64,000 bases of DNA from an uncultured Spirochaetaceae bacterium. GTDB taxonomy: Bacteria; Spirochaetota; Spirochaetia; SZUA-6; DRHE01. Shown in pieces: positions 1 to 58,906 of this stretch. Where the stretch lies: the NCBI GenBank assembly GCA_964588525.1, contig CAZPQC010000002.1:9721-73720 (forward strand), given 5' to 3'. The notes beneath the pieces were generated by a model. It was not told the origin of the DNA. It made no database searches and saw only the letters and a list, made by a program, of their open reading frames with translations. Position 1 is the stretch's first letter; each line of letters begins with the position of its first letter. A program made the position numbers and the translations under genes.

Positions 1-1
1 C

Positions 2-535
2 GCCACCGTGAAGAACTGCGGCCGGGTCGATGTCGTGGTCAATGCCGCCGGGGTTCTGGACATCAAGCCATTCCTCGAAATCTCTGAGGAGGAGTGGGAG
101 CGCACCTTCGCGGTGAACGTGAAGGGGATGTTTTTCGTCTGCCAGGAGGCGTTGAAGCGGATGATCGAGCAGAAGACGGGCTGCTTCGTCAACTTCGCCT
201 CGATCTCCGGCAAGGTCGGGGGCGTGCTGGCCGGAGCGGACTACTCGGCCTCGAAGGCGGCGGTAATCTGCCTGACCAAATCCCTGGCCAAGGTGGGAGC
301 GCCGCATGGTATTCGGGCCAATTCGGTGGCGCCGGGGGCGGTCTACTCGCCGATGCTCGATTCGTACTATCAGGATCACGCCGAGGAGATGAGGGGTTTC
401 GAGCAGAACCATCCGTTGGGACGATTCGGCAGAGCCGAGGAGGTGGCCAACACCGTGCTGTTCCTGGCTTCCGATCAGGCCTCCTATATCACCGGATCCT
501 GCCTCGATATCAACGGCGGTACACTGATGGACTAG
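2..535 (+). CDS. SDR-family oxidoreductase, C-terminal part (5' end lies off the window)
   Basis: The ORF is open to the left edge. It carries the NAAG, YSASK (YxxxK) and NSVAPG motifs typical of short-chain dehydrogenases. Confidence 0.9.
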   Translation, partial: ATVKNCGRVDVVVNAAGVLDIKPFLEISEEEWERTFAVNVKGMFFVCQEALKRMIEQKTGCFVNFASISGKVGGVLAGADYSASKAAVICLTKSLAKVGAPHGIRANSVAPGAVYSPMLDSYYQDHAEEMRGFEQNHPLGRFGRAEEVANTVLFLASDQASYITGSCLDINGGTLMD

Positions 536-615
536 CTCCGGTTGGCTGATCCAGCCGGTATAACGGTAGTGGCCAAGACGGAAGTGCAAATCCACCGGGA
601 AGAACGAGGGATCGG

Positions 616-1803
616 ATGAAGAGCAACATCTATCTGCAAGAGGCCAAGGCCAATCTCGAAGAAATCAGCCGAAATCGCCGATTCTTTCATCAGAATCCGG
701 AGCTGGGATTTCAGGAGTTCCAAACTGCAGAAAGAGTGGCAGGGTATCTGAAGAGCCTGGGACTGGAGGTAAAAACCGGGATCGCCGGAACCGGGGTCGT
801 GGGTGTTCTTCGCTGCGACACGCCGGGCAGGACGGCTGCCCTGCGAGCCGACATGGATGCCCTGCCCATGGAGGAGAAGAATACGGTGCCCTACGCGTCG
901 AAGAATCCGGGGATCATGCACGCCTGCGGACACGACGGTCATACCGCCATGCTGATGGAGACGGCTCGTTTGCTGGTCCATCACAAAGACTCGCTGCGTG
1001 GCAACGTCAAGTTTATCTTTCAACCCTGTGAAGATACGATTCCCAGCGGCGCGGAGCCGATGATCGCCGAGGGGGTCCTAAACGATCCGGATGTTGAGGC
1101 CATCTTCACGGTTCACCTGATGTCCCGCTTCCCCGAAGGGAGTATGTGGCTGAAGCAGGGATACATGACGATATCCTCGGCTGGCTTCGAGCTGACTCTG
1201 CAGGGCAGGGGGGGACACGTTGGAGCTCCCCACGATGTGATCGATCCGATCATGATGGCGGGGATGCTGATTACCGGCAGCCAGTCGATGATGAGCCGGC
1301 GTGTAGCCCCGGGGCAGACGATGATCTTCGGTTTCGGTACGATTCACGGAGGGACTGCGGACAACATCGTCCCGGATGAAGTCACCTTGACCGGAAGTAT
1401 CCGCACGTCTACTCCCGAAGACCGGGAGGCGGCCATTGGAGATTTCGAGAGAATCGTGAAGGGCGTTGTGGAATCAGTGGGGGGAAGCTACACGCTGAAG
1501 GTCGAGATCCAGAATCCGTCGGTCTACAACGATCCGGAGCTCGTTCCTCTGGTGAAAAACGCGGGAGCGGAGATCCTGGGAGAGACGAACGTTCAGGAGT
1601 TTTCCTGGATCTTCCCCGGTGGGGATGATGCCGCTTTTTTCCAGCAGAAAGTGCCCGGTGTTTACTGGTACCTGGGAACCAGGAATGAGGGAAAGGGCTT
1701 CGACAAGCCCCATCACAACCCCTATTTCGACTTCGACGAGAGCATGCTCGCTGTCGGTTCGGCTGTCCAGGCACAGACGGTTGCCGACTTCCTCAACACC
1801 TGA
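616..1803 (+). CDS. M20D-family amidohydrolase (N-acyl-amino acid or hippurate hydrolase-like)
   Basis: 395 aa with an HACGHDGH metal-binding motif. A GGA-rich Shine-Dalgarno (SD) sequence lies upstream. Confidence 0.9.
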   Translation: MKSNIYLQEAKANLEEISRNRRFFHQNPELGFQEFQTAERVAGYLKSLGLEVKTGIAGTGVVGVLRCDTPGRTAALRADMDALPMEEKNTVPYASKNPGIMHACGHDGHTAMLMETARLLVHHKDSLRGNVKFIFQPCEDTIPSGAEPMIAEGVLNDPDVEAIFTVHLMSRFPEGSMWLKQGYMTISSAGFELTLQGRGGHVGAPHDVIDPIMMAGMLITGSQSMMSRRVAPGQTMIFGFGTIHGGTADNIVPDEVTLTGSIRTSTPEDREAAIGDFERIVKGVVESVGGSYTLKVEIQNPSVYNDPELVPLVKNAGAEILGETNVQEFSWIFPGGDDAAFFQQKVPGVYWYLGTRNEGKGFDKPHHNPYFDFDESMLAVGSAVQAQTVADFLNT

Positions 1804-2128
1804 TCGTCCGGCCGGTCGGGGCTTGATGAGTACTGACACCGGTCCCGGGATAGTGGCAGTAGGCGCACTTGCCGCCTCTGGAACCCGGGGATACCCCGTC
1901 GCCTAGGATGCGGGTGATGGTGTTACTATACAAATCATCATCATTCGCACCCTGAAGGATCCACTGGCGCAGATTTTCCAGCTCCCGATCCGTGAGAGGA
2001 TCGATATTCCAGGGCATTGGATCGCCGTCGATTTTCGGCTCCAGCTCCGCCTGTTCCACCTTCCAGATAAGGGCACTGCCGTTCGGATCCCCGGGAACCA
2101 CCACAATCGGCCTGGAGGCTTCGACCAC
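1793..2128 (-). CDS. Cytochrome-c-like domain remnant (PSCyt1-like segment plus CAYCH). It has no signal peptide of its own and is in frame with the upstream gene across one TAG.
   Basis: It contains VVPGDPNGS...MPW...LRQWILQGA followed by a CxxCH motif. It starts at GTG with no SD. My manual translation of 2129-2233 is open and in the same frame as 2234..3031. Confidence 0.35.
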   Translation of the reverse strand: MVEASRPIVVVPGDPNGSALIWKVEQAELEPKIDGDPMPWNIDPLTDRELENLRQWILQGANDDDLYSNTITRILGDGVSPGSRGGKCAYCHYPGTGVSTHQAPTGRTIRC

Positions 2129-2233
2129 CTCAGGCGCTGCGGTTTCTGAACTTGCTTCTCCCGCGATCGCTTCCTCGGCGGTTTTTTCGCCCCCCCGTTT
2201 GTGCAGGCTTGCCGCTGCAGCTGAAGCCTGAGA

Positions 2234-3031
2234 CTATTCCCCGTCAAATATGTCGTCGTCCAGTCCAACATTCAGCCGGTAATTCGAATAGCGGTCCTCG
2301 ATGCTCAATGTTCGGTCGGCCAGGGTTACGAGGAAGCTCACCCGCACTCGCATATCCATGCTGAACACGGAGGGTAGCCGGAAGCCGTCTACCTGCGCAA
2401 AGCGGATGCTCATGGCGAACTCCTCCAAAATGCGGGGAAGCGCGGCCGGAGCCATCTCCACATATACGGGTTGATAGTCCTTTTGGGATATGTAGGCGCT
2501 GCCGGCGAAGAGGTTCTCCCCAGCCTGTTTCGGCGTGAAGCCCATGACCCACACAGCCTGATCCTCGAACAGCTTCGGCCCCTTCAGTTCGAAATCGTAG
2601 AGGGGCGCTGCTTCGGCGCTGAAGGGACTTTGAAACTCCCCGTTGCCTTCCCGACGGCCGCCCCGCTGCTGCCTGGCAAGCTCCCGCTCCATCTCTTTTT
2701 GGTTGAGCTTTCGCCCGTCGATGGTCATGGACAAATACTCATTTTGCAGCTGATCCGGCTCGCGTACGTAGATCCTTCGGACGGACAGGGTTTCGCTCTT
2801 GACAGCCCCGCGGGAGGCATCTTCCCATTCGATCACCTGCGCCTCAGCTGTGTAGACCATATCCCGGATCGCCGACTCCCGGGCCGCCTCGGCCTGCTGT
2901 ACCTCCCAGAGAATGGTTTCGACTGTCGGGTTGCCCGTGTGACCGACCTGGGCAAGGAGAAGAAGCGTTATCGACGAGACGCCGCGAAGAAAGTGTTTCA
3001 TTATCCCGAAGTACAATTTAGCTCTCTCCAA
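2234..3031 (-). CDS. Secreted hypothetical protein, LolA/RseB-like (outer-membrane lipoprotein-sorting-like fold suspected)
   Basis: 265 aa with an N-terminal signal peptide (MKHFLRGVSSITLLLLAQV). An alternative ATG at 3001 is possible. The gene directly abuts the MttB stop codon. Confidence 0.7.
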   Translation of the reverse strand: MERAKLYFGIMKHFLRGVSSITLLLLAQVGHTGNPTVETILWEVQQAEAARESAIRDMVYTAEAQVIEWEDASRGAVKSETLSVRRIYVREPDQLQNEYLSMTIDGRKLNQKEMERELARQQRGGRREGNGEFQSPFSAEAAPLYDFELKGPKLFEDQAVWVMGFTPKQAGENLFAGSAYISQKDYQPVYVEMAPAALPRILEEFAMSIRFAQVDGFRLPSVFSMDMRVRVSFLVTLADRTLSIEDRYSNYRLNVGLDDDIFDGE

Positions 3032-4462
3032 CTATCCTTTGGCGATTCTGTAGATCTCCTCGGTAACCTTTTCCTCCAGGGCAGGCGGCGTGTGTTCCTC
3101 CAGGATCCGCGCCGCCCGCTCATGAGCCCGGTCGGACAGGCTCTTGCTTCCCCTTTTGACCCAACCGTCGTGGTTGTTGTGATCCATCAGCCGAGCAAAC
3201 CAGAACTCCTCGCGAAAGTGCTTGAGGGTGTGATCGTGGGTCAGGTAGTTGCCCGCCGGGCCGACCTCTTCGATGACCTCCAGGGCCAGGTGCTCGGGGC
3301 TGATATCGACTCCGCGGCCGAAGCGTTTGACGAAGCTCACCACCTCGTCACAGATGACCAGGCTCTCCAGGGATCCGGTCATCCCCATCTCCAGGTAGCC
3401 CATGTCGTGGATCAGATTGTTGCCGATCAGGTACTCGTTGAAAATCGTCATCCCGATCTCAACACCCGCCTGCTGATCCAGGATCTTGGCGTCTCCGGCA
3501 CCGGCCTTGGCGAAGGTGGGAATCCCATAGTAGAGGGCCATCTCCTTGTTCATGATCGAGGCCAGCAGAACCTCGGGCGTCATGTAGGGGGGGACAAGAG
3601 TCTGCATGTCCAGGAACACCACCGACGTGTCCACGATCAGGGGCGCCCCCGGTGATTTCAGCTGATGGATCACCAGCCCGCTCAGCATGCGGGCGTTTCC
3701 CTGGACGAAGCTCCCAGCCAGGGTCGCCGGAGCGGTGGAACCGCCGATATCCACGGAATGGTATTCCACGGGAATCTGTTTCTCGGCGCAGAACAGCACC
3801 CTCTGGAGGGAATCTTTGGGATGGATGAACGGGGCGATGGCCATGGCATAGTGGATCAGAAAGGGTCTGCGCTGCAGTTTGTCCGTGCCTTCCGCCGTAA
3901 TCACAGCCATCTCATAGATGTCCTGCAGGCCTTCCAGGCTCCAGGCGGTGAACATGATCGGTTTGCCGGAGTTCTCCATCATGGCGGCGAAGTGGTAGCG
4001 ATCGCTGCGCTCTACCGGGCAGTCGCCGGCCGAGCCCAGGCTCATGATGAAGTCCACGTTTTCCAGCCCGTCGGCCAGCCGGGCGGCGCGTTTAACATCC
4101 TCCAGCACGGCGGGACGCCGTTTGCCGGTCTGGAAGTCGATGACGTTCGGCGTGTCCGAGCCGGTCCCGAAATGGGCCTTCCGCTCTTCCAGGGACATGG
4201 CCGGCGTCCCCGTTCGATCGTAGATTTCGATATTCTGCGGTACGGTTCCGAGTGCCCGGCGCACCACCCGCTCGGGGATGAACACCCGCTGATCCTCCAC
4301 GCTGCAGCCCGCCTCTTCTAGCAGTCCCAGGGCCTGCTCCTCGTGCACGATGACCCCGTTTCGCTGCAGAAGACGGAGGCTGGAGCGGTGGATCTCCTCC
4401 TTCTGGGCCTCTTCCAGGAGTGTCACCCGCGGCTGCGCACGGACAAAAAAATCGTTCTTCAT
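3032..4462 (-). CDS. Trimethylamine methyltransferase (MttB) superfamily protein, non-pyrrolysine type
   Basis: 476 aa and full length, with no in-frame TAG. It has MttB-like N-terminal and core regions. A GGAAGGAG SD lies upstream. Confidence 0.9.
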   Translation of the reverse strand: MKNDFFVRAQPRVTLLEEAQKEEIHRSSLRLLQRNGVIVHEEQALGLLEEAGCSVEDQRVFIPERVVRRALGTVPQNIEIYDRTGTPAMSLEERKAHFGTGSDTPNVIDFQTGKRRPAVLEDVKRAARLADGLENVDFIMSLGSAGDCPVERSDRYHFAAMMENSGKPIMFTAWSLEGLQDIYEMAVITAEGTDKLQRRPFLIHYAMAIAPFIHPKDSLQRVLFCAEKQIPVEYHSVDIGGSTAPATLAGSFVQGNARMLSGLVIHQLKSPGAPLIVDTSVVFLDMQTLVPPYMTPEVLLASIMNKEMALYYGIPTFAKAGAGDAKILDQQAGVEIGMTIFNEYLIGNNLIHDMGYLEMGMTGSLESLVICDEVVSFVKRFGRGVDISPEHLALEVIEEVGPAGNYLTHDHTLKHFREEFWFARLMDHNNHDGWVKRGSKSLSDRAHERAARILEEHTPPALEEKVTEEIYRIAKG

Positions 4463-4520
4463 CTCGATCTCCTTCCGGGGTGAACGGGGTTTTGGATCGC
4501 GCCGGTGTGGATGGGCATTC

Positions 4521-6224
4521 TCAGGGTTTGTGCTTCTGAAACCGCAGCCGACCGTTCTCCAGCTTCTGGCCGAGGAAACAGAACCAGTTGGCGTCGTCCT
4601 GCTGCGGATAATCCCTGCGCTGAAAGATCTTGCCCCGGCTTTCCCTGCGCTCGATCGTGGAGCGGAGGATGATCTTGCCGCATTCGATCAAGTTGCGCAT
4701 CTCCAGACAGTGGGTCAGCTCATGGGAGTTGGCCGCGGTTAAACGCATGGTGTTTTCCAGGTATTCGAGGCACTCCAGCCCGCGCCGGGCCATGGTCTCC
4801 GAACGGAGATGAATATTGTAATCGCTCATGTGGTTGTGGATCGTCGCTTGCGCGTCCTCCCAGGGATCCCCGCCCGAACGATTCAGGATTTCATTGCAGA
4901 AGGCGACCAGTTCTTCCTCTCCCTTGCCGTCGGCCGCCGCCCCGGCTCCGGCAGCCCTTTTGGCCGCCGACTCCGCAGCCAGATACCCCATTGTGAAGGC
5001 TCCGGGGGCCACGCTCCCGGGAATACCGCCCGCCTCGTCTCCGGCCGCGTACAGACCAGGCAGGGTGGTCTCACATGTTTCGTCGACCATCGGCCCGCCC
5101 GCTGCGGCTGCGGAGTGTTCCGGTTCGATGGGCCACAGCTCGATCTTGTGCTTGCGGAAATCCAGAGCGTAGCGTTCCATGATATGGAGGAAGCCCGGCC
5201 CCAGGCCCTCGTTCTCGACGGCCCAGAGCATGTAGCGCTGGTCCTCCTCGCTGCCCCAGGACATGTCGGCGTAGATCGGTCCCCGCCCCGCCTCCAGCTC
5301 GCCCTGGAAGCTCTTGCCCGTGGCAAAGGTCTTGGCCGTGCCGTACACGGTCTTGCTGCCCACGTCGTGGTTGCGCCGGCGGATCACCTCGCCCAGGGCA
5401 TTCACTCCGACTCCGGGGGGCTGATAGGAGCCGGTGGGCAGTCCGCCTCCCCGGATGAGGTTCCTCGAGGACCAGCGGCCGGGAACGGAGAGGAACTCCA
5501 TGTTGATCAGCTCGACCCCGGCCCGGAACATGGCCGCCTTGCCGTCTCCGGTCAGGGCCGGAGGCATGCGGATGGCGAAGGTAAGGCCGGGGAAGGGCTT
5601 GTACAGGCGGTTGACCCTTCCGGTGGTCATGATCACCGCCTTGGCCAGGATCCGATGGATCTTCCCGTCCCGGGTTCCGTAGCCCACGGCTCCGGCGATC
5701 TCTCCGTTTTCCGTGAGCAGTTCCGTGACCATCACCCTGTCGAGAATGCGGGCCCCCGCCTTGCGCACGGCCCTGGTCAGGATGCGCTTGATATCCCGGC
5801 CCTCGAAATGGAGGGTGTTGCGGCAGGCGTGCATCTGGTACTGAAGACGCAGCTTGCCCGGCAGGGTGGAGTCGTCGAAACGGATCCTGGCTCCGAAGCG
5901 CTCCAGGTCCAGAATCCGGTCGTAGCTGGTGGCGGCGATGTAGTGCAGCATCCGCCTGTTCACCAGGCCCTGGGCCACGTTCTCGACATGATCCTCGACC
6001 ATCTGCTCCAGGCTCATCCCTTCCTGTTCCTGGACCTGGGGGAAGTAGCCCCAAATGTGGTCCAGCCCGGTGCCGGCGCATCCGGAGCGCTCCGGGTTGG
6101 ATTTGTCCACCAAAATTACGTTGTCGTTCAGCTCCGCGGCCCGGATTGCGGCCATGCATCCGGCCAGCCCTCCGCCCGCCACGCAGATGTCGCAGCTGTG
6201 CTCTTGAATCTCTACGTTTTTCAT
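4521..6224 (-). CDS. FAD-dependent oxidoreductase, AprA / fumarate-reductase flavoprotein-like
   Basis: 567 aa. An N-terminal VAGGGLAGCMAA dinucleotide fold and a C-terminal GLYAAGDEAGG motif are present. Confidence 0.85.
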   Translation of the reverse strand: MKNVEIQEHSCDICVAGGGLAGCMAAIRAAELNDNVILVDKSNPERSGCAGTGLDHIWGYFPQVQEQEGMSLEQMVEDHVENVAQGLVNRRMLHYIAATSYDRILDLERFGARIRFDDSTLPGKLRLQYQMHACRNTLHFEGRDIKRILTRAVRKAGARILDRVMVTELLTENGEIAGAVGYGTRDGKIHRILAKAVIMTTGRVNRLYKPFPGLTFAIRMPPALTGDGKAAMFRAGVELINMEFLSVPGRWSSRNLIRGGGLPTGSYQPPGVGVNALGEVIRRRNHDVGSKTVYGTAKTFATGKSFQGELEAGRGPIYADMSWGSEEDQRYMLWAVENEGLGPGFLHIMERYALDFRKHKIELWPIEPEHSAAAAGGPMVDETCETTLPGLYAAGDEAGGIPGSVAPGAFTMGYLAAESAAKRAAGAGAAADGKGEEELVAFCNEILNRSGGDPWEDAQATIHNHMSDYNIHLRSETMARRGLECLEYLENTMRLTAANSHELTHCLEMRNLIECGKIILRSTIERRESRGKIFQRRDYPQQDDANWFCFLGQKLENGRLRFQKHKP

Positions 6225-6577
6225 AGCCCGTCCTCCGCCTGGCCGGAGTTGTTGCCACTGCCTGTGCCGTCTTTGCTGGAGTTCCGTTCGATAGAGCGGG
6301 AAAAATCAGCAGCCCGCTTGAGCGCTTCACTGTCCTCCGGACCCGGAGGACCGTACAGAGCCGGGGAGGGCACGATGTGAAGCGGCAGGGGAAGGTTGAG
6401 GGAAACAGCCCCGCGGGGACAGTCGACCACGCAGGCACCGCAGTACCAGCACTCCTGCGGGTAGGCGATTGCGGGAACCTGTTTTTGCTTTTTATCGAAG
6501 ATAAATACATCCTGAGGGCAGATGTTGTAGCATATGCCGCAGTAATTGCACAGGTCCTTGTCGATCACCGGGGGCAT
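6221..6577 (-). CDS. 4Fe-4S dicluster ferredoxin, AprB-like
   Basis: Two cluster motifs are present: CNYCGICYNICP and CWYCGACVVDCP. The gene overlaps the downstream flavoprotein gene by 4 nt. Confidence 0.85.
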   Translation of the reverse strand: MPPVIDKDLCNYCGICYNICPQDVFIFDKKQKQVPAIAYPQECWYCGACVVDCPRGAVSLNLPLPLHIVPSPALYGPPGPEDSEALKRAADFSRSIERNSSKDGTGSGNNSGQAEDGL

Positions 6578-6578
6578 T

Positions 6579-7658
6579 TCAACTCTCCTTGATCTTCGAG
6601 ATGCCGGGAATCAAGGTCTGGGTGCTCAACACGCCGGGAATGTGGCGGATATTCTGCTGGACGTAGCGGCTGATCACCTCCGCGTCCGAAGACACCAGAT
6701 CCCGGGTGAGGACGAGTTTGGCGATGACGTCGATGCTGCCGTGAACCGAATGCACCTCCTTCACCTCGTCCAGGACGAATATCCGGTCGAGGATCTGAGA
6801 CTCCTTCTTGGCGGTGATATTGATCAGCACGAACACGGTGATCTCCCGGAGCATCTCCGGGTAGTCTTTCTCTTTGGTGTTTTTCATGTTTTGACGAAAC
6901 TCCTCCATGCTGCGGGTAATGCTCCTGTCGATCAGGGAGCCGAAGGATCGGGGATGGCTGCGTTCCCACTGGTGTACCGATATATAGGCGTAAAGATCCG
7001 AGGCGGTACGTCCCGGAAAAGAATCCAACAATCCCGCTTTTTCCACTATTGCAGCCAGCGGACGATAGATGGTGTTATACCAGTCCTCAGCCGCCTCTTT
7101 CAAGGGCACCCCGGATCCGGCCTGCCCCGACAGAAACTGCCGGTGTTGCGTGATCTGCCTCAGGAGGTTGCGGTACTGGCCCGGCTCGGTCAGGTCGATG
7201 GATTTCCGCAATCCCGTCTTATCCTGAAACTCGGTCTTGTCCCGGTAGAGGATGTTCTCCGCCGTTCCCCTGGAGGGAAGGAACTCCATGACCCGGGCGT
7301 TGATCTCTTTGAATCCCCGCTCCTTGGCCACACTGATGCGGTGATTCCCGTCCAGAACGAAGTAGCCGTCCTTGATCTTGAACAGATCCACCGGCGGCAG
7401 GGGCTTGCCCCGTTCCATGAGGGCACGGATGGTGTGCAGACGCTCGTGGGGCCTGTCCTTCTTCAGGCGAAAGCGGCTGTCGAAATCGAGGTAGCGGTTC
7501 ACGCTCCCCACGATTTGGGAGAGCTTCACGGTCTGCTGGCCCCGGTCCCTGTACTCGTACGCCCCCTCTCTCTGCTGTTCATCCCGGAAGCGTTTGATCG
7601 CCGCCGACTCGGCTGCTGATGTTGTATGCCTGTTTTTACGGGCGTAGCTGCTACCCAT
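6579..7658 (-). CDS. ParB/Srx-like N-terminal domain fused to a C-terminal Lrp/AsnC-type ligand-binding domain
   Basis: The DGYFVLDGNHRISVAKERG (DGNHR) motif marks the ParB/Srx part. The C-terminal ~80 aa resemble an AsnC/RAM domain. Only 1 nt separates it from the ferredoxin start. Confidence 0.75.
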   Translation of the reverse strand: MGSSYARKNRHTTSAAESAAIKRFRDEQQREGAYEYRDRGQQTVKLSQIVGSVNRYLDFDSRFRLKKDRPHERLHTIRALMERGKPLPPVDLFKIKDGYFVLDGNHRISVAKERGFKEINARVMEFLPSRGTAENILYRDKTEFQDKTGLRKSIDLTEPGQYRNLLRQITQHRQFLSGQAGSGVPLKEAAEDWYNTIYRPLAAIVEKAGLLDSFPGRTASDLYAYISVHQWERSHPRSFGSLIDRSITRSMEEFRQNMKNTKEKDYPEMLREITVFVLINITAKKESQILDRIFVLDEVKEVHSVHGSIDVIAKLVLTRDLVSSDAEVISRYVQQNIRHIPGVLSTQTLIPGISKIKES

Positions 7659-8250
7659 TGTCGTACTCGAAGAGATAGTATCCCGAGCAGTTGATTACCC
7701 GGGTTTGCCCGATCCGGGTGATTCGCTGCGCGGGGTCGTCGAAGCGGCGATGGATGTGGCCGTGGAGGAAGTATTTGGGCTGATAGCGGTCGATCAGGCG
7801 CCTGTAAACCTGAAATCCCCGATGGCAGGGATCCTCAGAATCGTGAATGTGCCGGGGAGGAGCGTGGGCAACGATCATGTCGAGACGGCCGTATCTGCGC
7901 AGCCGTGGCCGCAGGAAGCGGAGCGTCTGCCGCATCTGTGCCTCCGTGTACTGCAGAGGTCTGCCATTGTACCAGTGGGAACCCTCCAGGCCGAGGATCG
8001 TGCGTTCCCCAACGGACACCACCTGGGCGTGGATGTTGAAACAATTCTTCGGAGGGCTCGCTTCGTAGCGAATATCATGGTTGCCCCTGATGTAGTACAG
8101 AGGAGCGCCGAAGGCCTTGCTGAGAGCCGAGAGGTAATCAGGGGGAAGGTCTCCGCAGGAAACGATAAACCGAACCTCCGAAAAGATGCTGCCCTTTAAC
8201 AGATCGCTGGAAAGAGGCTCGATAAAATCGGATACGGCAAGTATCTTCAT
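7651..8250 (-). CDS. Calcineurin-like metallophosphoesterase (YfcE-like)
   Basis: Motifs ILAVSD, GDL, RGNHD and GHIH are present. I chose the ATG at 8250 (MKILAVSD) over the longer ORF start at 8328. The gene overlaps the next gene by 8 nt. Confidence 0.85.
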   Translation of the reverse strand: MKILAVSDFIEPLSSDLLKGSIFSEVRFIVSCGDLPPDYLSALSKAFGAPLYYIRGNHDIRYEASPPKNCFNIHAQVVSVGERTILGLEGSHWYNGRPLQYTEAQMRQTLRFLRPRLRRYGRLDMIVAHAPPRHIHDSEDPCHRGFQVYRRLIDRYQPKYFLHGHIHRRFDDPAQRITRIGQTRVINCSGYYLFEYDNG

Positions 8251-8314
8251 GAAAGCTTCAGAACAATATATCAAATAATGAGAAATTGGGTTAGCAATTT
8301 GGTAAACAATAAAA

Positions 8315-8344
8315 TTGACACCTGACACCGCGCGCGGTTATAAT
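8315..8344 (+). promoter_or_regulatory. Near-consensus sigma70-type promoter for the ABC/MttB operon
   Basis: TTGACA (8315-8320), an 18-nt spacer, then TATAAT (8339-8344). An AGGAGG SD at about 8375 precedes the ATG at 8387. Confidence 0.5.
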
Positions 8345-8386
8345 GCAATTTCATACAGAAATCGTAATAAAATAGGAGGTTATAGG

Positions 8387-10054
8387 ATGAACGAAAGCGA
8401 ACGCGTTCACCCGGGTGTTCACGAGCTGAAGAGTGAATACCAGAAGGGAAAAATCAGCCGTCGGGAGTTCATCAGATACTCCGCTTTGCTCGGCATGTCC
8501 GCCGTGGCCGCCGGCAGGATGGTATATGCCGGCGGACAACAGCAACCTTCGGTGAGCCCGTCGGCAGCCGGAATCCGGAGGGGCGGAATGGTAAAAGCAG
8601 CCTGTGCCGTATTGAAGGTCGGGCACCCGGCCCAGCTGTCCTGGAACGCCCACGATCTGTTCTATATGCAGATCGCTTCCTATCTGACCTACACCGACGT
8701 GAAGAACGTCACGCACCCGTATCTGCTCAAGAATTGGCAAGTGAGCGACGATTTGAGGATCTGGAATCTGAATCTCAAAGAGGGGGTCAGCTTCAACAAC
8801 GGGGATGAGTTTACAGCCGACGATGTGATTTTTACCTACAACGAATGGCTGAACAAGGATGTCGGCTCTGCGATGCTGGGATTGGTGGGAAGTTATCTGG
8901 AGCCCACAGGAATCGAGAAGGTTTCCAAGTACCAGGTCAGGCTCCACCTGACCCGCCCGGAGATCGCCGTTCCGGAGCACCTGTTCCAGTTTCCCGCCCT
9001 CGTCTTGAACCATCGGACCTTCGAAGGGGACTTCCTCAAGGCACCCCACGGAACCGGTCCCTTCACCCTCGAGCTCTACCGGGAGGGCGAGGTTGCCCGG
9101 ATGAGGAGGCGTGAGGATTTCTGGATCAAGGGAGCCGACGGCAAGCCGCTTCCCTACGTGGATGGCATCGAGTTAATCGATATGGGAACCGAGTATCCGG
9201 CGCAGATCGCCGCATTGAAATCCGGAGACATTCACATCATGAACATGAGCGACGGGGCACCCGCCGCAACGATCTTCCAGGCCGTGAAGGGAGATCCCAA
9301 TATAGAGGTGGTAGGATTTCCCACGGCCCGAGTCAAAGTCATACGCATGCGTTCGGACATCGAGCCCTTCAACGACAACCGGGTGCGATCGGCCCTGAAG
9401 AAGTGTCAGAACCGGGAGAAAATCCTGAAGCTGGCCCACTTCGGGGAAGGCGTGTTGGGTCACGATACCCATGTATCCCCGGCTCATCCTGATTTCTGCG
9501 AAATGCCGGTGCCCAAATACGATCCGGAAGGGGCCAGGCGGCTCCTGACGGAGGCCGGATATTCGACCGGCTTGGACATCAAGATCGCGGTCATCGCCGA
9601 CCAGTCCGATGCGGTGCGGACCGCCGAGGTGCTCAAAGAAGACTGCGCCGCTGCCGGTTTCAGGCTCACGATTGACACCATGCCGGCGAGCAAATACTGG
9701 GAGCAGTGGACCGAGGTCGATCTGGGCATCACCCAGTGGGCTCACCGCCCGCTGGGCACCATGGTATTGGGTCTGGCGTACGTCAGCGATTCCGAGGGCA
9801 AGCCGGTGGCCTGGAACGAAACCCGCTGGGTGGATCCGGAGTTCAACGATCTGTACAAGCAGGCCAGCGGGACCTACGACGTGAACGAGCGCCGGAAGAT
9901 CATGTGCAAGCTGGAGACGATTCAGATGGAGCGGGGGTCGATCGGCATCGCCTATTGGCAGAATTTCTGGTCCCTCCACAACAGGAAATTCCGGGATGTT
10001 CCGTCCTCACCGATCGATGTCTGGTACTTCGACGGCAGCTGGCTGGAGGCGTAA
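8387..10054 (+). CDS. ABC transporter substrate-binding protein, family 5 (peptide/opine/nickel type) with a twin-arginine signal
   Basis: The SRREFIRYSALLGMSAVAAG Tat motif is present, along with family-5 SBP length and composition. An AGGAGG SD sits 7 nt upstream of the ATG. Confidence 0.9.
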   Translation: MNESERVHPGVHELKSEYQKGKISRREFIRYSALLGMSAVAAGRMVYAGGQQQPSVSPSAAGIRRGGMVKAACAVLKVGHPAQLSWNAHDLFYMQIASYLTYTDVKNVTHPYLLKNWQVSDDLRIWNLNLKEGVSFNNGDEFTADDVIFTYNEWLNKDVGSAMLGLVGSYLEPTGIEKVSKYQVRLHLTRPEIAVPEHLFQFPALVLNHRTFEGDFLKAPHGTGPFTLELYREGEVARMRRREDFWIKGADGKPLPYVDGIELIDMGTEYPAQIAALKSGDIHIMNMSDGAPAATIFQAVKGDPNIEVVGFPTARVKVIRMRSDIEPFNDNRVRSALKKCQNREKILKLAHFGEGVLGHDTHVSPAHPDFCEMPVPKYDPEGARRLLTEAGYSTGLDIKIAVIADQSDAVRTAEVLKEDCAAAGFRLTIDTMPASKYWEQWTEVDLGITQWAHRPLGTMVLGLAYVSDSEGKPVAWNETRWVDPEFNDLYKQASGTYDVNERRKIMCKLETIQMERGSIGIAYWQNFWSLHNRKFRDVPSSPIDVWYFDGSWLEA

Positions 10055-10178
10055 GCTGCGAGTGCTTCCAGGAAACAGACCCGTAGACAGTCGCACAGAC
10101 AGATGACTCAAGGGAGTGCTTTGGTGGGGAACCAGGGTGCCCTCTACTGTTTTCACGTTTTCAAACCGGTCTTGAACA

Positions 10179-11477
10179 ATGGCTAAGTTCATCATCCGTC
10201 GCTTTCTTCTCCTCCTGATCACCATGCTCTTCGTTTCCGTCGCGGTTTTCCTGCTCACCGAGTCGGCCCCGGGAAACGTAGCCCGGACCATTCTGGGAAC
10301 GTTCGTCACGCCGGAGCAGGAAGCCTCTTTCATGGCCCAGGTGGGTTTGGACAAACCCGCCTATTTGCGTTACATCTACTGGTTCATCGGCAGTGACTGG
10401 CATGCCCGCAGCAAGATCGGGCTGCCCTTGAAAACCGTGGTCGGAAACGAGGGGTACCGGGAGTGGTGGGCGGAAAGTGAGGACGGAGAGCTGATCCGCT
10501 GGAAGCTGCGGGGGGAAGACCTGATTGCCGAAGTACGGAATCCCGACGGTTCGACCCGAGAGTTCACGGACAACCGGCGATGGCGGTTCGATGAAGGGGG
10601 GCTGCAGAGCTTCTGGGGCGTCAACAACAGCAACACCGCGGTCAAGTGGGAAAAAGGCTCGGGAGAAACGAGCTGGACCTTCATCTACGGAACCGGCTGG
10701 TTCGAAAGCACCGGTGCACCGACGGAGTTCATACCCCTGCAGCGGGGATTCATCAGGGGGGATCCGGGCATATCCCTGCGAACCGGTCGTCCGGTATCGG
10801 CCAGCCTGTTTTCGCGCCTGCGCAATTCCCTGGTCCTGGCGTTTCTGGCCTTCGTCGTGGTCATGCCGATCTCCCTGCTGCTGGGAATCATCGCCGGACT
10901 CAAGGAGGGTTCCTTCCAGGATCGGCTGCTCTCGGTCACCGGGATGATGTTTACGGTGATTCCCATGTTCGTGACCGGCATTTTTCTCATTCTCATCTTC
11001 TCCATCTGGTTGAAATGGCTTCCCGGTGCCTCGATCTTCAGCGATCAGGCTCCCTGGACGCGGCCGAAGATGCTGGTTCTGCCTCTGTTGACCCTGACCC
11101 TCGCGGAGCTGGGTTACATCATGCGGATCACCCGGGCCAGCATGGTGGAGACCATGCGTTCCCCCTACATCCGAACGGCCCTGCTGAAAGGACTTCCCTA
11201 TCGGCGTATCGTGCTCAAGCACGCGGTCCGCAATGCCCTCATGGCACCGATCACGGTGATTATGCTTCACATCAGCTGGCTGCTGGGGGGAATCGTGATC
11301 GTGGAAGCGGTATTCGGTTATCCCGGACTGGGCAAGTACATTCTGGAATCGGCGCTGTACAAGGATGTGAACGCCATCGAGGCCAGCGTCATGCTCCTGG
11401 TGGTGGTCGCCGTGGGAACCCAGTTGATCGCGGATATCGTCTATACCTTTCTGAACCCCCGGATCCGCTATGCCTGA
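10179..11477 (+). CDS. ABC transporter permease (DppB/OppB-like) with an enlarged periplasmic loop
   Basis: 432 aa with an N-terminal TM helix and a C-terminal BPD-transporter core. About 100 extra residues lie between TM1 and TM2. Confidence 0.9.
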   Translation: MAKFIIRRFLLLLITMLFVSVAVFLLTESAPGNVARTILGTFVTPEQEASFMAQVGLDKPAYLRYIYWFIGSDWHARSKIGLPLKTVVGNEGYREWWAESEDGELIRWKLRGEDLIAEVRNPDGSTREFTDNRRWRFDEGGLQSFWGVNNSNTAVKWEKGSGETSWTFIYGTGWFESTGAPTEFIPLQRGFIRGDPGISLRTGRPVSASLFSRLRNSLVLAFLAFVVVMPISLLLGIIAGLKEGSFQDRLLSVTGMMFTVIPMFVTGIFLILIFSIWLKWLPGASIFSDQAPWTRPKMLVLPLLTLTLAELGYIMRITRASMVETMRSPYIRTALLKGLPYRRIVLKHAVRNALMAPITVIMLHISWLLGGIVIVEAVFGYPGLGKYILESALYKDVNAIEASVMLLVVVAVGTQLIADIVYTFLNPRIRYA

Positions 11478-12459
11478 GCCGCGACTGCGGGCCGAGCCGA
11501 AGGTTACCGGACGACTGCTGCCGCGGCAGGGGCAACAGCGGCTGAAGCAGCAGGAACAGCGGCTCAGGCAGCATCAAAAGCGCCGGAAACTTCGAGGGCT
11601 GGCGTCGATCCATCCGGTATTCGCATCCCGGACGGCCATGGTCGGCATATTCATCGTCCTTTTCTGGGTGATCGTTGCTCTGTTCGCGCCGCTGCTCACC
11701 CCCTACACCCCAACCGAGCAGGACTGGCAGTTCGTGAACGAAGGGCCCACCAGGAAACATCCTCTGGGCACCGATGACCTGGGCAGGGACCTGTGGGCCA
11801 GGTTGATCTACGGCGCCCGGGTCGTGCTGGTTGCCCTGCCGATCTCGGAGAGCTTTTCTCTCCCCGGAGGCACGGTCATCTGGGGCGTATTGGCCGCCGT
11901 GGTGATCGGCACCTTGCTGGGTTTGCTCGGCGGCTACAGGGGCGGCTGGCTCGATGAGATCATCATGCGGATCCTGGACGCCATGATATCCATCCCCCTG
12001 ATCCTCCTCTACCTCCTGATCCTCTCCTCTATCGGCGCCTCGGCTGTGAACGTGGTCATCGCCATTGCGGTGGTGGGAGTACCCGGTATGGCTCGCCTGG
12101 TTCGCAGCCTGACCCTGGACATCCGGACCCGGGAGTATGTGCGGGCCGCCGAAACCCGTGGGGAGAGCGGCCTCTACATCATGGTGGTGGAGATCCTGCC
12201 GAACGCCGTGGGGCCGGTGATCGTTGATGCCATGCTGCGCGTCGGCTATGCCATCTTCGCCATGGGTACCCTGGGCTTTCTGGGGCTGGGTCTGCCCCCT
12301 CCCTCCCCCGACTGGGGCAGCATGATCGCCAAGGGCAGGGAGTTCATCTTCATCAGCCCCTGGGCGGCGCTCTGGCCCTCCATCGCCATAGGCACGCTGG
12401 TGGTAGGGCTGAACCTGTTCGCCGACGGGCTGCGGGAAGAGACGATGCGTTACCGTTAA
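11470..12459 (+). CDS. ABC transporter permease (DppC/OppC-like)
   Basis: The LFAPLLTPYTP N-terminal motif and a multi-TM core are present. The start overlaps the previous gene by 8 nt. Confidence 0.9.
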   Translation: MPEPRLRAEPKVTGRLLPRQGQQRLKQQEQRLRQHQKRRKLRGLASIHPVFASRTAMVGIFIVLFWVIVALFAPLLTPYTPTEQDWQFVNEGPTRKHPLGTDDLGRDLWARLIYGARVVLVALPISESFSLPGGTVIWGVLAAVVIGTLLGLLGGYRGGWLDEIIMRILDAMISIPLILLYLLILSSIGASAVNVVIAIAVVGVPGMARLVRSLTLDIRTREYVRAAETRGESGLYIMVVEILPNAVGPVIVDAMLRVGYAIFAMGTLGFLGLGLPPPSPDWGSMIAKGREFIFISPWAALWPSIAIGTLVVGLNLFADGLREETMRYR

Positions 12460-12482
12460 AGCTTCGCGGAGATAGAGAGTTT

Positions 12483-14579
12483 ATGAGCACACGGTTGTCA
12501 CCGTCAACTGATTCTCTTGTACTGAACGTCGAGGGGCTACATATCGCCTACGACACACCGGTCGGAGAGATTCGGGCAGTGAGCAACGTCTCGTTTCGGG
12601 TCCGTCAGGGCGAAACCGTCGGTATCGTGGGCGAATCCGGCTGCGGGAAGAGCACGATCGCCTTCGGTGTCGTCAATTTCCTGGGAACCAACGGCCGCAT
12701 TACCGACGGCAGTATCGAGTTCCAGGGACGGGAGCTGGTGGGCTGCCCGCTTCGGGAGCTGCGGGAGATTCGGGGTAACCGGATTTCCATGGTGTACCAG
12801 GATCCCATGCAGGCCCTCAATCCGGTTCTTCGCATCGGCGATCAGCTGATCGAGGTGCTCATCGTTCATCAGCGCATCTCCAAGGATTCCGCCTGGGAGC
12901 AATCCATCGAGATGCTCGAACAAGTGTACATGCCCGATCCCGATATCGTGATGAACCGCTATCCCCACCAGCTCTCCGGCGGCCAGCAGCAACGGGTGGT
13001 GATCGCCATGGCCATGCTCAACCGCCCGGCCCTGCTGATCATGGATGAGCCAACTACGGCTCTAGATGTGACGGTCGAAGCGGTGGTGCTTGATCTGGTG
13101 GATGAGCTGAAGCAGGAGTTCAACACAGGGATCATCTACATCACCCATAACCTCGGAGTCATCGCCCGGGTGAGCGATCATCTGAACGTCATGTACGCCG
13201 GAGAGTTCGTGGAGAGAGGTTCCGTTCGGGAGATCTTCGCGAATCCGGTTCATCCATATACCCGGGGTTTGTTGCACTGTGTTCCCCGGCTGGAGACCAG
13301 CAGCCGGATGTCCCGGCTGTACAACATAAAGGGCCGCGTACCCTCGCTGTCCGAGCGGCCGGAGGACACCTGCATTTTTACACCCCGTTGCCAGTACGCT
13401 CAGGATCGCTGCTACGCCGGACATCCGGAAATCGAAGAGTTTTCGAGCGGGCACGACGTGCGCTGCTGGTATGGACGTGAAACGAAGGTACAGCCCCTGG
13501 TTCAACAGAGCGCCGAAGAGGCGGTTCGTGCCGAAGCGGGAACTGCGGGAAACGAGCCGATCCTGAAGGCGGAACACCTGCGGATCTACTACGAGCAGGA
13601 ATCGAGGTCCGTCCTCAGCCTGATCGGGCTGGGCAAGAGAGAGTTCATCAAGGCGGTGGATGACATCACCCTTCAGATTATGCGGGGGGAAACGTTGGGA
13701 GTTGTGGGAGAATCCGGCTGCGGCAAGAGTACTCTTGCCAAAGGGATCATCGGGCTGGAGAAGATTTCCGGGGGCGGGGCGGAGTTCCTGCAATTCGACC
13801 TCTCCGAGCCGCTGGCCGGGCGCGCGCTGGACCTGGTTAAGGATATCCAGATGGTATTCCAGAATCCGGATGCGACCCTGAATCCCTCGTTCGTGGTCGG
13901 CAGGCAGATCGCAAGGCCTTTGAAGCGATTCAGGAGTGTTGCCGGAAACCGGGTCAGATCCGAGGTCGACCGGCTGCTCCAGGCCGTGCGGTTGAATCCC
14001 AACTATTACAACCGTTTTCCCCGGCAATTGAGCGGCGGGGAGAAGCAGCGGGTGGGAATTGCCCGAGCCCTGGCAAGTAGACCGGAGCTGATGATCTGTG
14101 ACGAGCCGGTCTCCGCTCTGGATGTTTCGGTCCAGGCGGCGGTGCTCAATCTGCTCAAGGACATCCAGGCGGAAACCGGGAATACCATCATGTTCATCGC
14201 CCATGACCTGAGTGTCGTGCGCTTTTTTGCGGGTTTCATCATCGTCATGTACCTCGGTCAAATCGCCGAATACGGGCCAACGGAATCGATCTTTAACCTG
14301 CCCTATCATCCCTACACCGAAGCCCTCCTTTCGGCAGTTCCGATCCCCGATCCCGACGCTCAAGAGAGGCGCATCCGCCTCAGCGGGGAGGTGCCCAGCA
14401 GCCTCAATCCGCCCACCGGCTGCCGTTTCCACACCCGCTGCCCGCGTAGAGGCGCCCTGCCCGACGGGGGGAAGGTCTGCGAGACCCAGCCGCCGCCGAT
14501 GCGGGAGCTTCACGCGGGCCACTTGATCTTCTGCCATTTGTCAGCTCAAGATCTTGCCGGACTCCAGTCGGAACTCTGA
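12483..14579 (+). CDS. ABC transporter ATP-binding protein with two fused ATPase domains (DppD-DppF type)
   Basis: There are two Walker A motifs (GESGCGKS twice), two LSGGQ/LSGGE signatures, and oligopeptide-type C-terminal Cys-rich tails. Confidence 0.9.
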
Positions 14580-14598
14580 TATCAGGAGAACATCCCGG

Positions 14599-16068
14599 AT
14601 GAGCACTTCGGATCTTTTCGGTCGACCAAGACTTCAGTTCCTGTCTTCAGAACAGTCTGAACGTATTCATCTTGCATCTTTGAGGTTGCTCGAAACAGCC
14701 GGCGTGAGGATCCACCTCCCGGAAGCCGTGGACCTGCTGGTGAAGGCGGGAGCCGAAGCGCGAAATGCTTCAACCGTATGCATCCCGCGGGGGCTGGTTG
14801 AAGAAGCCTTGAAAGCGGCTCCCCGAAGCATATCCATCGGGAATCGTCGCGGTGATTCGGCCATGGTCTTGAAAGCGGGCAACAGTTACTACGGCACGGG
14901 TCCCACGATCCAGTACGTCTACGATATCGACACGGGGCAGCGGAGGCCGACCGACTACGAGGATATCGAAAAGGCCGCCCGCATCTGCGACTATCTTTCC
15001 AACATTGATTTTGTCATGCCCATGGGAATGACCGCCGGGGTGGATCCCGCTTCCCGGGGCATCGATCCCAAAGTAACCGACCGCTACGATTTCGCGGCCA
15101 TGCTGCGAAACACCACCAAACCGTTGATGTGTTCCTGCTGGTCCCTCCAAGGCCTGGCCGACATCTGCGATATGGCGGCCGCGGTTCGGGGAGGCGAACA
15201 GGGCTTACGAGACAATCCGCTGTTTATCCTGTTCCGCCAGCCGATCTCGCCGTTGACCCACGATGTCGAGCCCCTGCGGGCGGTCCTGTACTGTGCGGAC
15301 ATGGGCATTCCTGTCTGCTACGCCAGCTATCCCTTGATGGGAGCTACCGGTCCGGCAACCCTGGCGGGCGCAGTGGCTCTGTCCAATGCCGAGTTCTTGA
15401 GCGGGTTGGTCATCAGTCAGCTGCGAAGACCGGGATCTCCGGTGATATTTAATGCCGGCGGCGGCCCCATGGACATGAGAGCCGGCAGCACTCCCTACAA
15501 CGCTCCTGAGAGCTTCCTCGGGGAGATGGCAGGAAGAGCCATGGGCGAGTTTTACGGATTGCCGAACTACAGCTATGGAGGGCTGACCGATTCCAAGCTG
15601 CTCGACGAACAGGCGGGGGCCGAAGCAGCTCTCTCCTTGTTTCAATCCACCCTTGCCGGCAGCACGCTCATCCACGACGTGGGCTACATGGACACGGGAA
15701 TGACGGGCAGCTGGGAGCTGATCGTTCTGGGGGACGAGATCATCGGCCATCTCAAACGAATCATGGCGGGAATCGATTTGAGGGACGAGCAGCTCGCCCT
15801 GGAAGTGATCGAAACGGTGGGTCCAGGCGGGCACTTCCTGATGGAGGATCACACCCTCCGGCACTTCAGGGACGTCTGGTATCCGAAGGTGATCAACCGG
15901 GAGGAATATTCGGTATGGGCCGGAAGGGGGGCCAAACCCCTGCGGGAGGTGCTGCGGGAAAAGGTCCGCTGGATCCTCGAGAACCATCAGCCGGAGCAGC
16001 TGCCCGCGGAGGTAGAGGCGCAGGTCGAATCCATCCTACAGAGAGCTGTAAGGGAAACAGCACCCTGA
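14599..16068 (+). CDS. Second MttB-superfamily methyltransferase, non-pyrrolysine type
   Basis: About 489 aa from the ATG at 14599, which has an AGGAGA SD upstream. It is paralogous in layout to 3032..4462 and has no in-frame TAG. Confidence 0.9.
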   Translation: MSTSDLFGRPRLQFLSSEQSERIHLASLRLLETAGVRIHLPEAVDLLVKAGAEARNASTVCIPRGLVEEALKAAPRSISIGNRRGDSAMVLKAGNSYYGTGPTIQYVYDIDTGQRRPTDYEDIEKAARICDYLSNIDFVMPMGMTAGVDPASRGIDPKVTDRYDFAAMLRNTTKPLMCSCWSLQGLADICDMAAAVRGGEQGLRDNPLFILFRQPISPLTHDVEPLRAVLYCADMGIPVCYASYPLMGATGPATLAGAVALSNAEFLSGLVISQLRRPGSPVIFNAGGGPMDMRAGSTPYNAPESFLGEMAGRAMGEFYGLPNYSYGGLTDSKLLDEQAGAEAALSLFQSTLAGSTLIHDVGYMDTGMTGSWELIVLGDEIIGHLKRIMAGIDLRDEQLALEVIETVGPGGHFLMEDHTLRHFRDVWYPKVINREEYSVWAGRGAKPLREVLREKVRWILENHQPEQLPAEVEAQVESILQRAVRETAP

Positions 16069-16129: not shown

Positions 16130-16456
16130 TTGCATCAGATAATGTACAGAGCCCAGATACTGCTTGACCCGCAGCAGCATCAAGCCCTACGCGAACTTGC
16201 CAAACGTCAGGGACGGAGTATCTCCTCCGTAGTGCGTGAAATGATCAACGATCGGCTGGTCAGGCTGAAAGAGGAACAGGACAGTCAACTTCGTCACCAT
16301 CTTGCAGTGATCGACCGAATACGGGATCACAAGAGGGCGGTGTTGGACAAACGGGATAGTCGGCGCCTTGCCGTGGATATCGCGAGAATTATCGAAGAAA
16401 ACAGAGCCGAACGGAATGGAAGCATCGTCGGAGCAGGTCGCCAGTCTGGTGATTGA
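16130..16456 (+). CDS. vapB: Ribbon-helix-helix (CopG/VapB-like) antitoxin
   Basis: The sequence YRAQILLDPQQHQALRELAKRQGRSISSVVREMI is a typical RHH N-terminus. The start is TTG 16130 or ATG 16142. It overlaps the downstream PIN gene. Confidence 0.7.
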   Translation: MHQIMYRAQILLDPQQHQALRELAKRQGRSISSVVREMINDRLVRLKEEQDSQLRHHLAVIDRIRDHKRAVLDKRDSRRLAVDIARIIEENRAERNGSIVGAGRQSGD

Positions 16457-21587: not shown

Positions 21588-21599
21588 TTTACTTCTCCC

Positions 21600-24017: not shown

Positions 24018-24127
24018 GGGTGTGGATCCTCCAGGGGATGGGTTACGCCTTTCATTCTGCCCGGGGAAGACGAAGCTGTCAATATCATAATCAAGAATCA
24101 AATTCCATATAATGAGAACATCATGTT

Positions 24128-24156
24128 TGACATAAACTCCGCGGAACGGTAGTATG
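24128..24156 (+). promoter_or_regulatory. Sigma70-type promoter in the AT-rich divergent region between the two XDH-family operons
   Basis: TTGACA (24128-24133), a 17-nt spacer, then TAGTAT (24151-24156). It lies upstream of an AGGAGGA SD and the GTG at 24220. Confidence 0.45.
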
Positions 24157-25077: not shown

Positions 25078-25078
25078 G

Positions 25079-58900: not shown

Positions 58901-58906
58901 TGCGGT

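Follow-up and report, generated by a model that had tools for sequence, protein, structure and literature searches.

The DNA studied here is a stretch of 64,000 nucleotides from an uncultured Spirochaetaceae bacterium (contig CAZPQC010000002.1, positions 9,721 to 73,720). We call the whole stretch the 64-kb window, and use its numbering unless a contig is named. Its first part carries two divergent operons, each encoding a methyltransferase of the MttB superfamily of the non-pyrrolysine (non-Pyl) kind. One of them also encodes a flavoprotein (FP) resembling the alpha subunit of adenosine 5'-phosphosulfate (APS) reductase, AprA, and its ferredoxin (Fd). Every sizeable open reading frame (ORF) of the window was scanned with Pfam, and NCBIfam was also used. 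The coordinates of the ORFs were reproduced by independent gene calls on near-identical contigs; comparison contigs and loci are given below by L-numbers.

The minus-strand operon is led by a metallophosphoesterase (7651..8250, or ..8328; Metallophos E 3e-11), whose start is placed at ATG 8250 by a 199-aa call on L033 and L102. It is followed by a 359-aa fusion of a ParB-like N-terminal domain and a C-terminal Lrp/AsnC RAM domain (6579..7658; AsnC_trans_reg E 1e-6), by Fd, with two [4Fe-4S] clusters (6221..6577; Fer4 family matches), by FP, a 567-aa flavoprotein of the flavin adenine dinucleotide (FAD) type similar to AprA and to the reductase acting on 3'-phosphoadenosine 5'-phosphosulfate (PAPS) (4521..6224; FAD_binding_2 and Succ_DH_flav_C), and by MttB1 (3032..4462; PF06253 E 2e-88). 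The metallophosphoesterase and fusion genes overlap by 8 nt, 1 nt separates the latter from Fd, and Fd overlaps FP by 4 nt, through which the two are predicted to be translationally coupled. This map, with its overlaps and gap, is the one proposed by the sequence-only reading of the window, and it was reproduced by the ORF coordinates, Pfam and NCBIfam. The last two genes encode a secreted protein of about 260 aa (2234..3016, or ..3031) and a hypothetical protein of 111 aa (1793..2128; called on L033 and L102). The former has a signal-peptide-like N-terminus (MKHFLRGVSSITLLLLAQV) and weak Pfam matches (DUF5686, E 1e-9; LolA_like, E 0.034), and its conservation is limited to close relatives; its gene abuts that of MttB1 or lies 15 nt away, depending on the start used. 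The latter had no Pfam match when the overlapping ORFs at 1793-2128 and 1903-2271 were scanned.

The 359-aa fusion protein is probably a ligand-sensing regulator or a nucleotide-binding protein. Its RAM domain, the sole region matched in a profile search of the PDB, matches 2cvi (E 5e-6). The motif PLPPV...DGNHR is invariant among the homologues. The ParB-like part is recognised by PF02195 (ParB_N) in one of nine homologues, weakly (E 0.027), and has one precomputed match, on the L028 homologue; the window protein has none at E < 0.5. No helix-turn-helix was detected in the protein, the N-terminal one of Lrp/AsnC regulators being replaced by the ParB-like region. The AlphaFold2 single-sequence model has a pLDDT of 32.6.

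The plus-strand operon starts at a sigma-70-type consensus promoter (8315..8344, TTGACA-18-TATAAT) that is perfect at 12 of 12 positions; shuffled sequence yields a mean of 0.5 such sites. An AGGAGG ribosome-binding site precedes ATG 8387, the start of a SBP_bac_5 substrate-binding protein (8387..10054; PF00496 E 2.5e-65) with the Tat signal motif SRREFIRY. Two ABC permeases (10179-11477 and 11470-12459; BPD_transp_1, BPD_transp_1_N and OppC_N), a 698-aa fused double ABC ATPase (12483..14579; two ABC_tran and two oligo_HPY stretches) and MttB2 (14554..16068; PF06253 E 7e-91) follow, as had been read from the letters alone. Directly behind MttB2, the region 16130-16889 coincides with a dip in GC content. 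It holds a probable toxin-antitoxin pair of the VapBC type, in which a small ORF precedes and overlaps the gene of a PIN-domain protein (16368-16889).

The MTTB domain is full-length in both enzymes (profile positions 24-488 of 500 in MttB1 and 28-494 in MttB2), which share 41% identity. Their ORFs, of 476 and 504 aa, are uninterrupted, and therefore lack an in-frame TAG, as previously noted, and pyrrolysine. The nearest solved structure is MtgB (2qne/9yce) for MttB1 (E 4e-60) and likewise for MttB2. However, of the four residues by which MtgB binds glycine betaine, Y97, R312, H348 and F356 (PMC13080624), only H348 is kept: the equivalents are S/F/H/G in MttB1 and P/Y/H/G in MttB2. With TIGR02369 the window MttB scores 380 bits, under the cutoff of 525. 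We thus rejected both proteins as glycine betaine enzymes of the MtgB type, and expect that they have a different substrate.

A corrinoid operon beyond the left edge of the window

Among the sizeable ORFs of the window, Pfam identified neither a B12-binding nor a Pterin_bind, URO-D or RamA domain, and a tblastn search of its DNA with the B12 domain of MetH gave nothing better than E 0.9. The statement that the 64 kb hold no corrinoid protein, no methylcorrinoid methyltransferase (MT2) and no RamA-type activase is thus literally true. Yet this is an edge artefact, due to where the window begins. For the left flank we used metagenome contigs whose M20 amidohydrolase, or whose MttB1, is exactly that of the window. 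L033-L036 and L102 encode such identical proteins, and their DNA identity to the window, beginning at its base 1, is 99.76-99.94% (e.g., L033 9386-20434 corresponds to window 1-11049). Four contigs extend leftwards into the same operon, and the continuation is uniform in every near-identical contig of sufficient reach.

The window start truncates a short-chain dehydrogenase (SDR), of which it holds the 3' part (1..535, plus strand; ORF 8-535). The full gene is at L033 9162-9920 (252 aa, adh_short), equivalent to -223..535 in window numbering. It is the first gene of a pair with the M20 amidohydrolase (616..1803, plus strand; Peptidase_M20 and M20_dimer), an enzyme of the N-acyl-amino-acid/carboxypeptidase type that exceeds the cutoff of TIGR01891 (amidohydrolases, 352 bits) and whose homologues recur across FP loci. 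This pair is divergent from a minus-strand corrinoid operon, which lies to the left of the 5' end of the SDR. The operon encodes a 217-aa corrinoid protein (about -1318 to -665; PF02607 and PF02310) with the DxHxxG motif in the form DLHDLG, directly followed by a 458-aa non-Pyl MtmB homologue (L033:6689-8065) and then, on the same contig, by a third MttB of 472 aa, both without in-frame UAG. Further left, on the same strand, are a 707-aa molybdenum/tungsten (Mo/W) oxidoreductase (L033:3096-5219, ~4-6 kb left of base 1), a DUF3830/Cucumopine_C protein and an Asp/Glu-type racemase, behind which lie an NMT1-like protein and an ABC permease.

The corrinoid gene ends ~665 bp outside the window; its distance to the stop codon of MttB1 is 3.7 kb. 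With this partner just beyond the edge, the locus is a conventional corrinoid-dependent methyltransferase island with importers. It comprises three MttB-type genes, one MtmB-type gene, one corrinoid gene, two ABC importers, the M20 amidohydrolase and the SDR. Hence, the absence of a corrinoid partner, on which the sequence-only reading was built, does not hold on contigs that are 99.8-99.9% identical. That reading had named corrinoid, methyltransferase and activase genes found elsewhere and co-regulated with its MttB genes as evidence that would speak against it; as far as the presence of genes goes, it is refuted by the corrinoid gene, found with an MtmB homologue and a third MttB, while MT2 and the activase were not located.

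The Mo/W enzyme, whose best PDB match is acetylene hydratase (2e7z, E 7.5e-74), keeps an acetylene-hydratase-like CxxCD, with the Asp beside a [4Fe-4S] cysteine, and the metal-ligand Cys, and it has C-Y where formate dehydrogenases have (U/C)-H. These features led us to reject it as a formate dehydrogenase that would close a route from methyl groups to CO2. Homologues were found in L005, L010, L011 and L018, and in L005 the Mo enzyme, Fd, FP and MttB1 form an apparent operon.

There are two types of non-Pyl MtmB, represented by L033:6689-8065 on the one hand and by L026:18896-20278 and L029:10653-12035 on the other, with a mutual identity of 38%. Each adjoins its own corrinoid protein gene. 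Horizontal transfer is suggested for one type, whose members in Desulfobacterota and Spirochaetes share 75-92% identity. The only non-Pyl MtmB with a known function is MtqB (PMC13044021).

The flavoprotein-ferredoxin pair across genomes

The FP loci compared came from species genomes (185,579 species, with 20 loci), metagenomes (65 loci) and context look-ups, and their neighbours were classed by tblastn. Dereplication at 98% nucleotide identity resulted in 42 distinct loci whose FP is at least 55% identical to that of the window. They belong to Spirochaetes, Desulfobacterota and Anaerolineae, and 24 of them are well flanked, with at least 3 kb on either side of FP. Fd adjoins FP in 41 of the 42. 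The other one, L003:10001-11866, encodes a Desulfobacterota-type FP of 621 aa with an N-terminal extension, and upstream of it there is no separate gene for Fd. Within 10 kb of FP, the 24 well-flanked loci have MttB in 23 cases, an MtmB homologue in 17 and a corrinoid protein in 15; a class I/II aminotransferase is present in 17 of the 24.

The adjacency of the redox pair and MttB noticed in the window is thus conserved. An MttB1 orthologue (64-89% identity) lies 6-573 bp from FP/Fd in 14 of the 42 loci, all of the Spirochaete type, and the MttB neighbouring FP in Spirochaetes is the MttB1 orthogroup (at least 57% identity). The Desulfobacterota operon, found among others in the Olavius Delta1 symbiont and in Desulfosarcina, consists of aminotransferase, Fd, FP, corrinoid protein and MtmB, with the corrinoid gene 73-500 bp downstream of FP. 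The aminotransferase is directly upstream of Fd-FP in many loci, whereas the metallophosphoesterase is restricted to a subclade of Spirochaetaceae. Directly upstream of an MttB1 orthologue that occurs without FP, L031 (9721-9927) and L032 carry a truncated corrinoid remnant that covers residues 129-197 of ~210.

Since FP loci carry corrinoid genes, the redox pair accompanies the corrinoid machinery and does not replace it; the idea that it holds the genomic place of the corrinoid protein is contradicted by corrinoid genes found beside FP. The FP/Fd pair is a near-obligate companion of corrinoid-dependent methyltransferase clusters, although the converse is false. We found no description of an association between AprA-like proteins and MttB in the literature searched. 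Hence, the association is apparently undescribed, as the sequence-only reading supposed, taxonomically broad and present in several bacterial phyla, even if the partnership as a corrinoid substitute is contradicted.

The closest complete genome is that of Spirochaetaceae bin59 (CP070696.1), whose FP is 85% identical and whose operon has the same order: metallophosphoesterase, ParB-RAM protein, Fd, FP and MttB1. At 2.86 Mb, away from this operon, bin59 has a gene 86% identical to a Spirochaete corrinoid protein. It lies in an operon with an aminotransferase, MtmB, MttB, an IOR-type 2-oxoacid:ferredoxin oxidoreductase and a SBP_bac_5 transporter, and this operon is surrounded by aminotransferase, IOR and ACD genes. 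We considered the window's transporter as an orthologue of this corrinoid-side transporter and rejected the idea, since the two are paralogues at 30-45%. In L031, an SBP5-type transporter at 45-52% identity to that of the window (45% for the binding protein, plus the permeases) adjoins the MttB1 orthologue. The bin59 counterpart of MttB2 is a 133-aa MTTB fragment (L001:6105-6506) adjoining the TatABC genes, and L006 has a full MttB2 orthologue (82% identity), directly divergent from the operon and without an ABC transporter. The arm with the transporter and MttB2 is therefore variable among close relatives.

A sister clade of FP (~45% identity), also with Fd, was found on the freshwater-sediment contigs L079, L080 and L083. 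Its neighbours are an M20 amidohydrolase, an IclR regulator, an IOR-type 2-oxoacid:ferredoxin oxidoreductase and an ADP-forming acyl-CoA synthetase; there was no aminotransferase and no methyltransferase among the ORFs scanned there.

The rest of the window includes two sets of Mo-hydroxylases of the xanthine dehydrogenase/carbon monoxide dehydrogenase type, with large, FAD and 2Fe-2S subunits (19286-27861 and 44017-44916), accompanied by an ornithine/aspartate carbamoyltransferase and an XdhC-like protein; synteny with bin59 (L001) extends over the first set and the ornithine carbamoyltransferase. A homologue of Borrelia P83/100 is found at 58865-60397 (E 5e-89) and, together with the nearest relatives, supports the spirochaete origin of the window.

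Family, active site and possible role of the pair

The best PDB match of FP is the alpha subunit of the PAPS reductase of M. thermolithotrophicus (8a8o_A, 164.5 bits, E 3e-47), followed by AprA. However, FP is under every NCBIfam cutoff (TIGR02061, 106.6 vs 641.75; PRK06854, 215 vs 557), including that of its top match PRK08275, named "fumarate reductase/SDH flavoprotein" (251 bits vs 587). It retains the catalytic Arg and His of the superfamily and loses the AprA-specific residues. The equivalent of AprA R265 is kept, and that of H398 was judged to be kept through the FrdA motif HYxMGG, the corresponding stretch of 1jnr not being aligned by HMMER. The carboxylate-binding Arg of FrdA (R390) and NadB (R386) has no equivalent in FP, which has GAFTMG at the position where the FrdA and NadB families have GANRLG. 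AprA N74 is replaced by W, inside an invariant DHIW motif, and W234/Y235, the Trp-Tyr of the FAD site in AprA and PAPS reductase (PMC10322725), are replaced by PP. FP was therefore rejected as an APS or PAPS reductase, because of its scores and of the replaced N74 and W234/Y235, and as a fumarate reductase or aspartate oxidase (NadB), because of its 251 bits and the missing dicarboxylate Arg. By its sequence, we place it in an uncharacterised branch of its superfamily. Fd matches 8a8o_C (E 3e-7) and AprB (E 2e-5), and polyferredoxins score higher; it is a two-cluster protein of generic type, its similarity to both subunits being weak.

Taken together, we think that the window probably holds the right half of a larger island of conventional type, for corrinoid-dependent demethylation, in an uncultured marine-sediment spirochaete; the FP/Fd pair would belong to this island as a catabolic enzyme. 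The MttB and MtmB enzymes would methylate the neighbouring corrinoid protein from imported substrates of the quaternary-amine or betaine type, and a shared MT2 and activase would be encoded elsewhere in the genome, as in Eubacterium limosum. FP and Fd would form an alpha/beta redox enzyme specific to such islands, whose most likely reaction is the oxidation of the amino-acid-type product of demethylation, yielding a 2-oxo acid and passing the electrons to ferredoxin. The 2-oxo acid could continue through aminotransferase or 2-oxoacid:ferredoxin oxidoreductase routes, and the ParB-like/RAM protein may sense the ligand. Thus, the proposal of a module for the uptake and demethylation of an imported methylated compound stands, but its corrinoid-free version does not.

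The assignment of a chemistry to the pair is more tentative. To our knowledge, the known substrates of non-Pyl methyltransferases are quaternary amines only. Secondary and tertiary amines cannot be transaminated. For these reasons we propose that FP/Fd may be a dehydrogenase linked to ferredoxin and acting on the C-N bond of a demethylated amino-acid-type product, an assignment that is our best guess but less probable than not, and whose best clues are the neighbours of FP. The upstream aminotransferase, the IOR and acyl-CoA synthetase genes of the sister clade and the context in bin59 suggest that FP makes a 2-oxo acid or acts beside one. More precisely, and with some doubt, the pair could be a hitherto unrecognised anaerobic dehydrogenase that converts N-methylated (secondary or tertiary) amino acids to 2-oxo acids and methylamines, and would thus supply the missing step after betaine demethylation by non-Pyl MttB and MtmB. 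If so, and we say this with reserve, it might be a candidate N-methyl-amino-acid dehydrogenase kept with methyltransferase islands in Spirochaetota, Desulfobacterota and Chloroflexota.

Several observations weigh against this interpretation. Without the carboxylate Arg, an amino-acid substrate would have to be bound by FP in a different way. MttB1 orthologues at 57-60% identity are found without FP. Deltaproteobacteria bin617 has an FP without methyltransferase within 10 kb, and none was seen near the FP of L015, whose contig offers 152 bp upstream of FP. An organosulfur role is left open by the AprA ancestry and by the SsuA-like and cystine-like binding proteins of related loci. The left flank is known from near-identical contigs and not from the window's own record. 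Finally, there is no MT2 and no RamA-type activase in the window and its 9.4-kb left extension (~73 kb). This last absence is ordinary, because in E. limosum separate clusters hold the genes of the MttB family, MtqC, and MtqA/RamQ (PMC8604678).

Other explanations of the pair are less probable. It is unlikely, for instance, that FP/Fd is a soluble, ferredoxin-dependent reductase of unsaturated acids, of the fumarate- or urocanate-reductase type, serving as electron sink for the oxidation of methyl groups or amino acids. The FAD_binding_2/Succ_DH_flav_C superfamily, the top match to PRK08275 and hosts that are fermentative or sulfate-reducing are consistent with this role, but the lack of an equivalent of FrdA R390 and a score so far from the cutoff are not, and no lyase or dehydratase that forms enoates recurs in the FP loci.

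We also consider it improbable that the pair performs sulfur chemistry of the AprAB type, by way of a sulfite adduct at FAD-N5. The reaction might then be a desulfonation, reductive or oxidative, of an amino-acid derivative that is sulfonated or a sulfonium compound, and the island would degrade osmolytes of the organosulfur kind. The nearest solved structures are those of PAPS and APS reductases, and the equivalents of R265 and, as proposed, H398 are kept. The NMT1 proteins of related loci are SsuA-like and their SBP_bac_3 proteins cystine-like, both under cutoffs, the Mo enzyme is also PhsA/PsrA-like, and the metallophosphoesterase and ParB/Srx-like protein of Spirochaetes could handle nucleotides. 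On the other hand, N74 is a Trp and the FAD-binding Trp-Tyr is PP in FP (PMC10322725), the scores are far under the aprA cutoffs, and sat, sulfite reductase and a sulfite exporter were not found in the annotated loci.

A third, quite improbable role is that of electron input for the reduction of the corrinoid protein from Co(II) to Co(I), with FP/Fd as a dedicated substitute of RamA. Clusters of the AprB type can reach very low potentials, no RamA was found in any Pfam-annotated related locus, and in Desulfobacterota Fd-FP is directly upstream of the corrinoid gene. Yet FP retains a substrate-type capping domain and the catalytic Arg and His, and an ATPase partner is missing. The FP of bin617 has neither methyltransferase nor corrinoid gene within 10 kb, L015 apparently neither, its upstream flank being short, and the sister clade lacks methyltransferases among the genes scanned. 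Moreover, RamA is commonly unlinked anyway (PMC8604678).

Finally, that the MttB proteins are corrinoid-independent, with the AprAB-like pair replacing corrinoid protein, MT2 and RamA, is very improbable: the lack of these genes in the 64 kb and the conserved adjacency of FP/Fd and MttB1 suggested it, but a corrinoid gene lies 3.7 kb from MttB1 in same-strain contigs, is present in 15 of the 24 well-flanked loci (73-500 bp after FP in Desulfobacterota) and is found elsewhere in the genome of bin59.

The preferred reading, a conventional island with a dedicated redox enzyme, matters because it is poorly understood what becomes of the tertiary amines that cobalamin-dependent demethylation of betaines leaves behind in anoxic sediments and guts, and the substrates of most non-Pyl MttB and MtmB paralogues are not known. 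Although rare, with about 20 loci among 185,579 species genomes, the FP/Fd module has MttB or MtmB/corrinoid genes nearby in 23 of 24 well-flanked loci, which makes it a concrete and testable candidate for the next catabolic step and a genomic marker for one specific class of substrates. The locus also illustrates how a partner gene can seem to be "absent" from a window of fixed extent because of where its edge falls.

Comparison with known systems

Among the systems of the MttB superfamily, MtgB/MtgC and the E. limosum enzymes MtpB, MtcB and MtyB, which work with MtqC, MtqA and RamQ, are like this island in having non-Pyl MttB genes. Further likenesses are a corrinoid protein resembling MtgC and MtbC, encoded in the same island (the L026 homologue scores 197 bits with the NCBIfam model of MtgC), and adjacent transporters. 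The lack of linkage to MT2 and the activase is an arrangement also found in E. limosum (PMC8604678). Unlike MtgB, MttB1 and MttB2 do not keep Y97, R312 and F356, and unlike the MtgB and Mtq systems, three MttB and one MtmB share a single corrinoid gene, with the FP/Fd pair alongside. In the MtqB/MtqC system of Methanococcoides, which acts on tetramethylammonium and choline (PMC13044021), a non-Pyl MtmB directly follows the corrinoid gene, as here. In contrast to that system, the host here is a bacterium, and there are two MtmB types with 38% mutual identity.

The pair itself has the composition of AprAB (1jnr) and of the PAPS reductase of M. thermolithotrophicus (8a8o), with an FAD alpha subunit of the fumarate-reductase fold, a beta subunit with two [4Fe-4S] clusters and coupled genes. 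Unlike these, it has no sulfate-activation context, and the partners of FP are an aminotransferase, MttB, MtmB and a corrinoid protein. With the flavoproteins NadB and FrdA, FP shares the superfamily and the C-terminal domain, and the chemistry that we propose for it, in which C-N oxidation turns an amino acid into an imino or oxo acid, would be NadB-like. Unlike NadB and FrdA, FP lacks the carboxylate Arg and has a dedicated ferredoxin.

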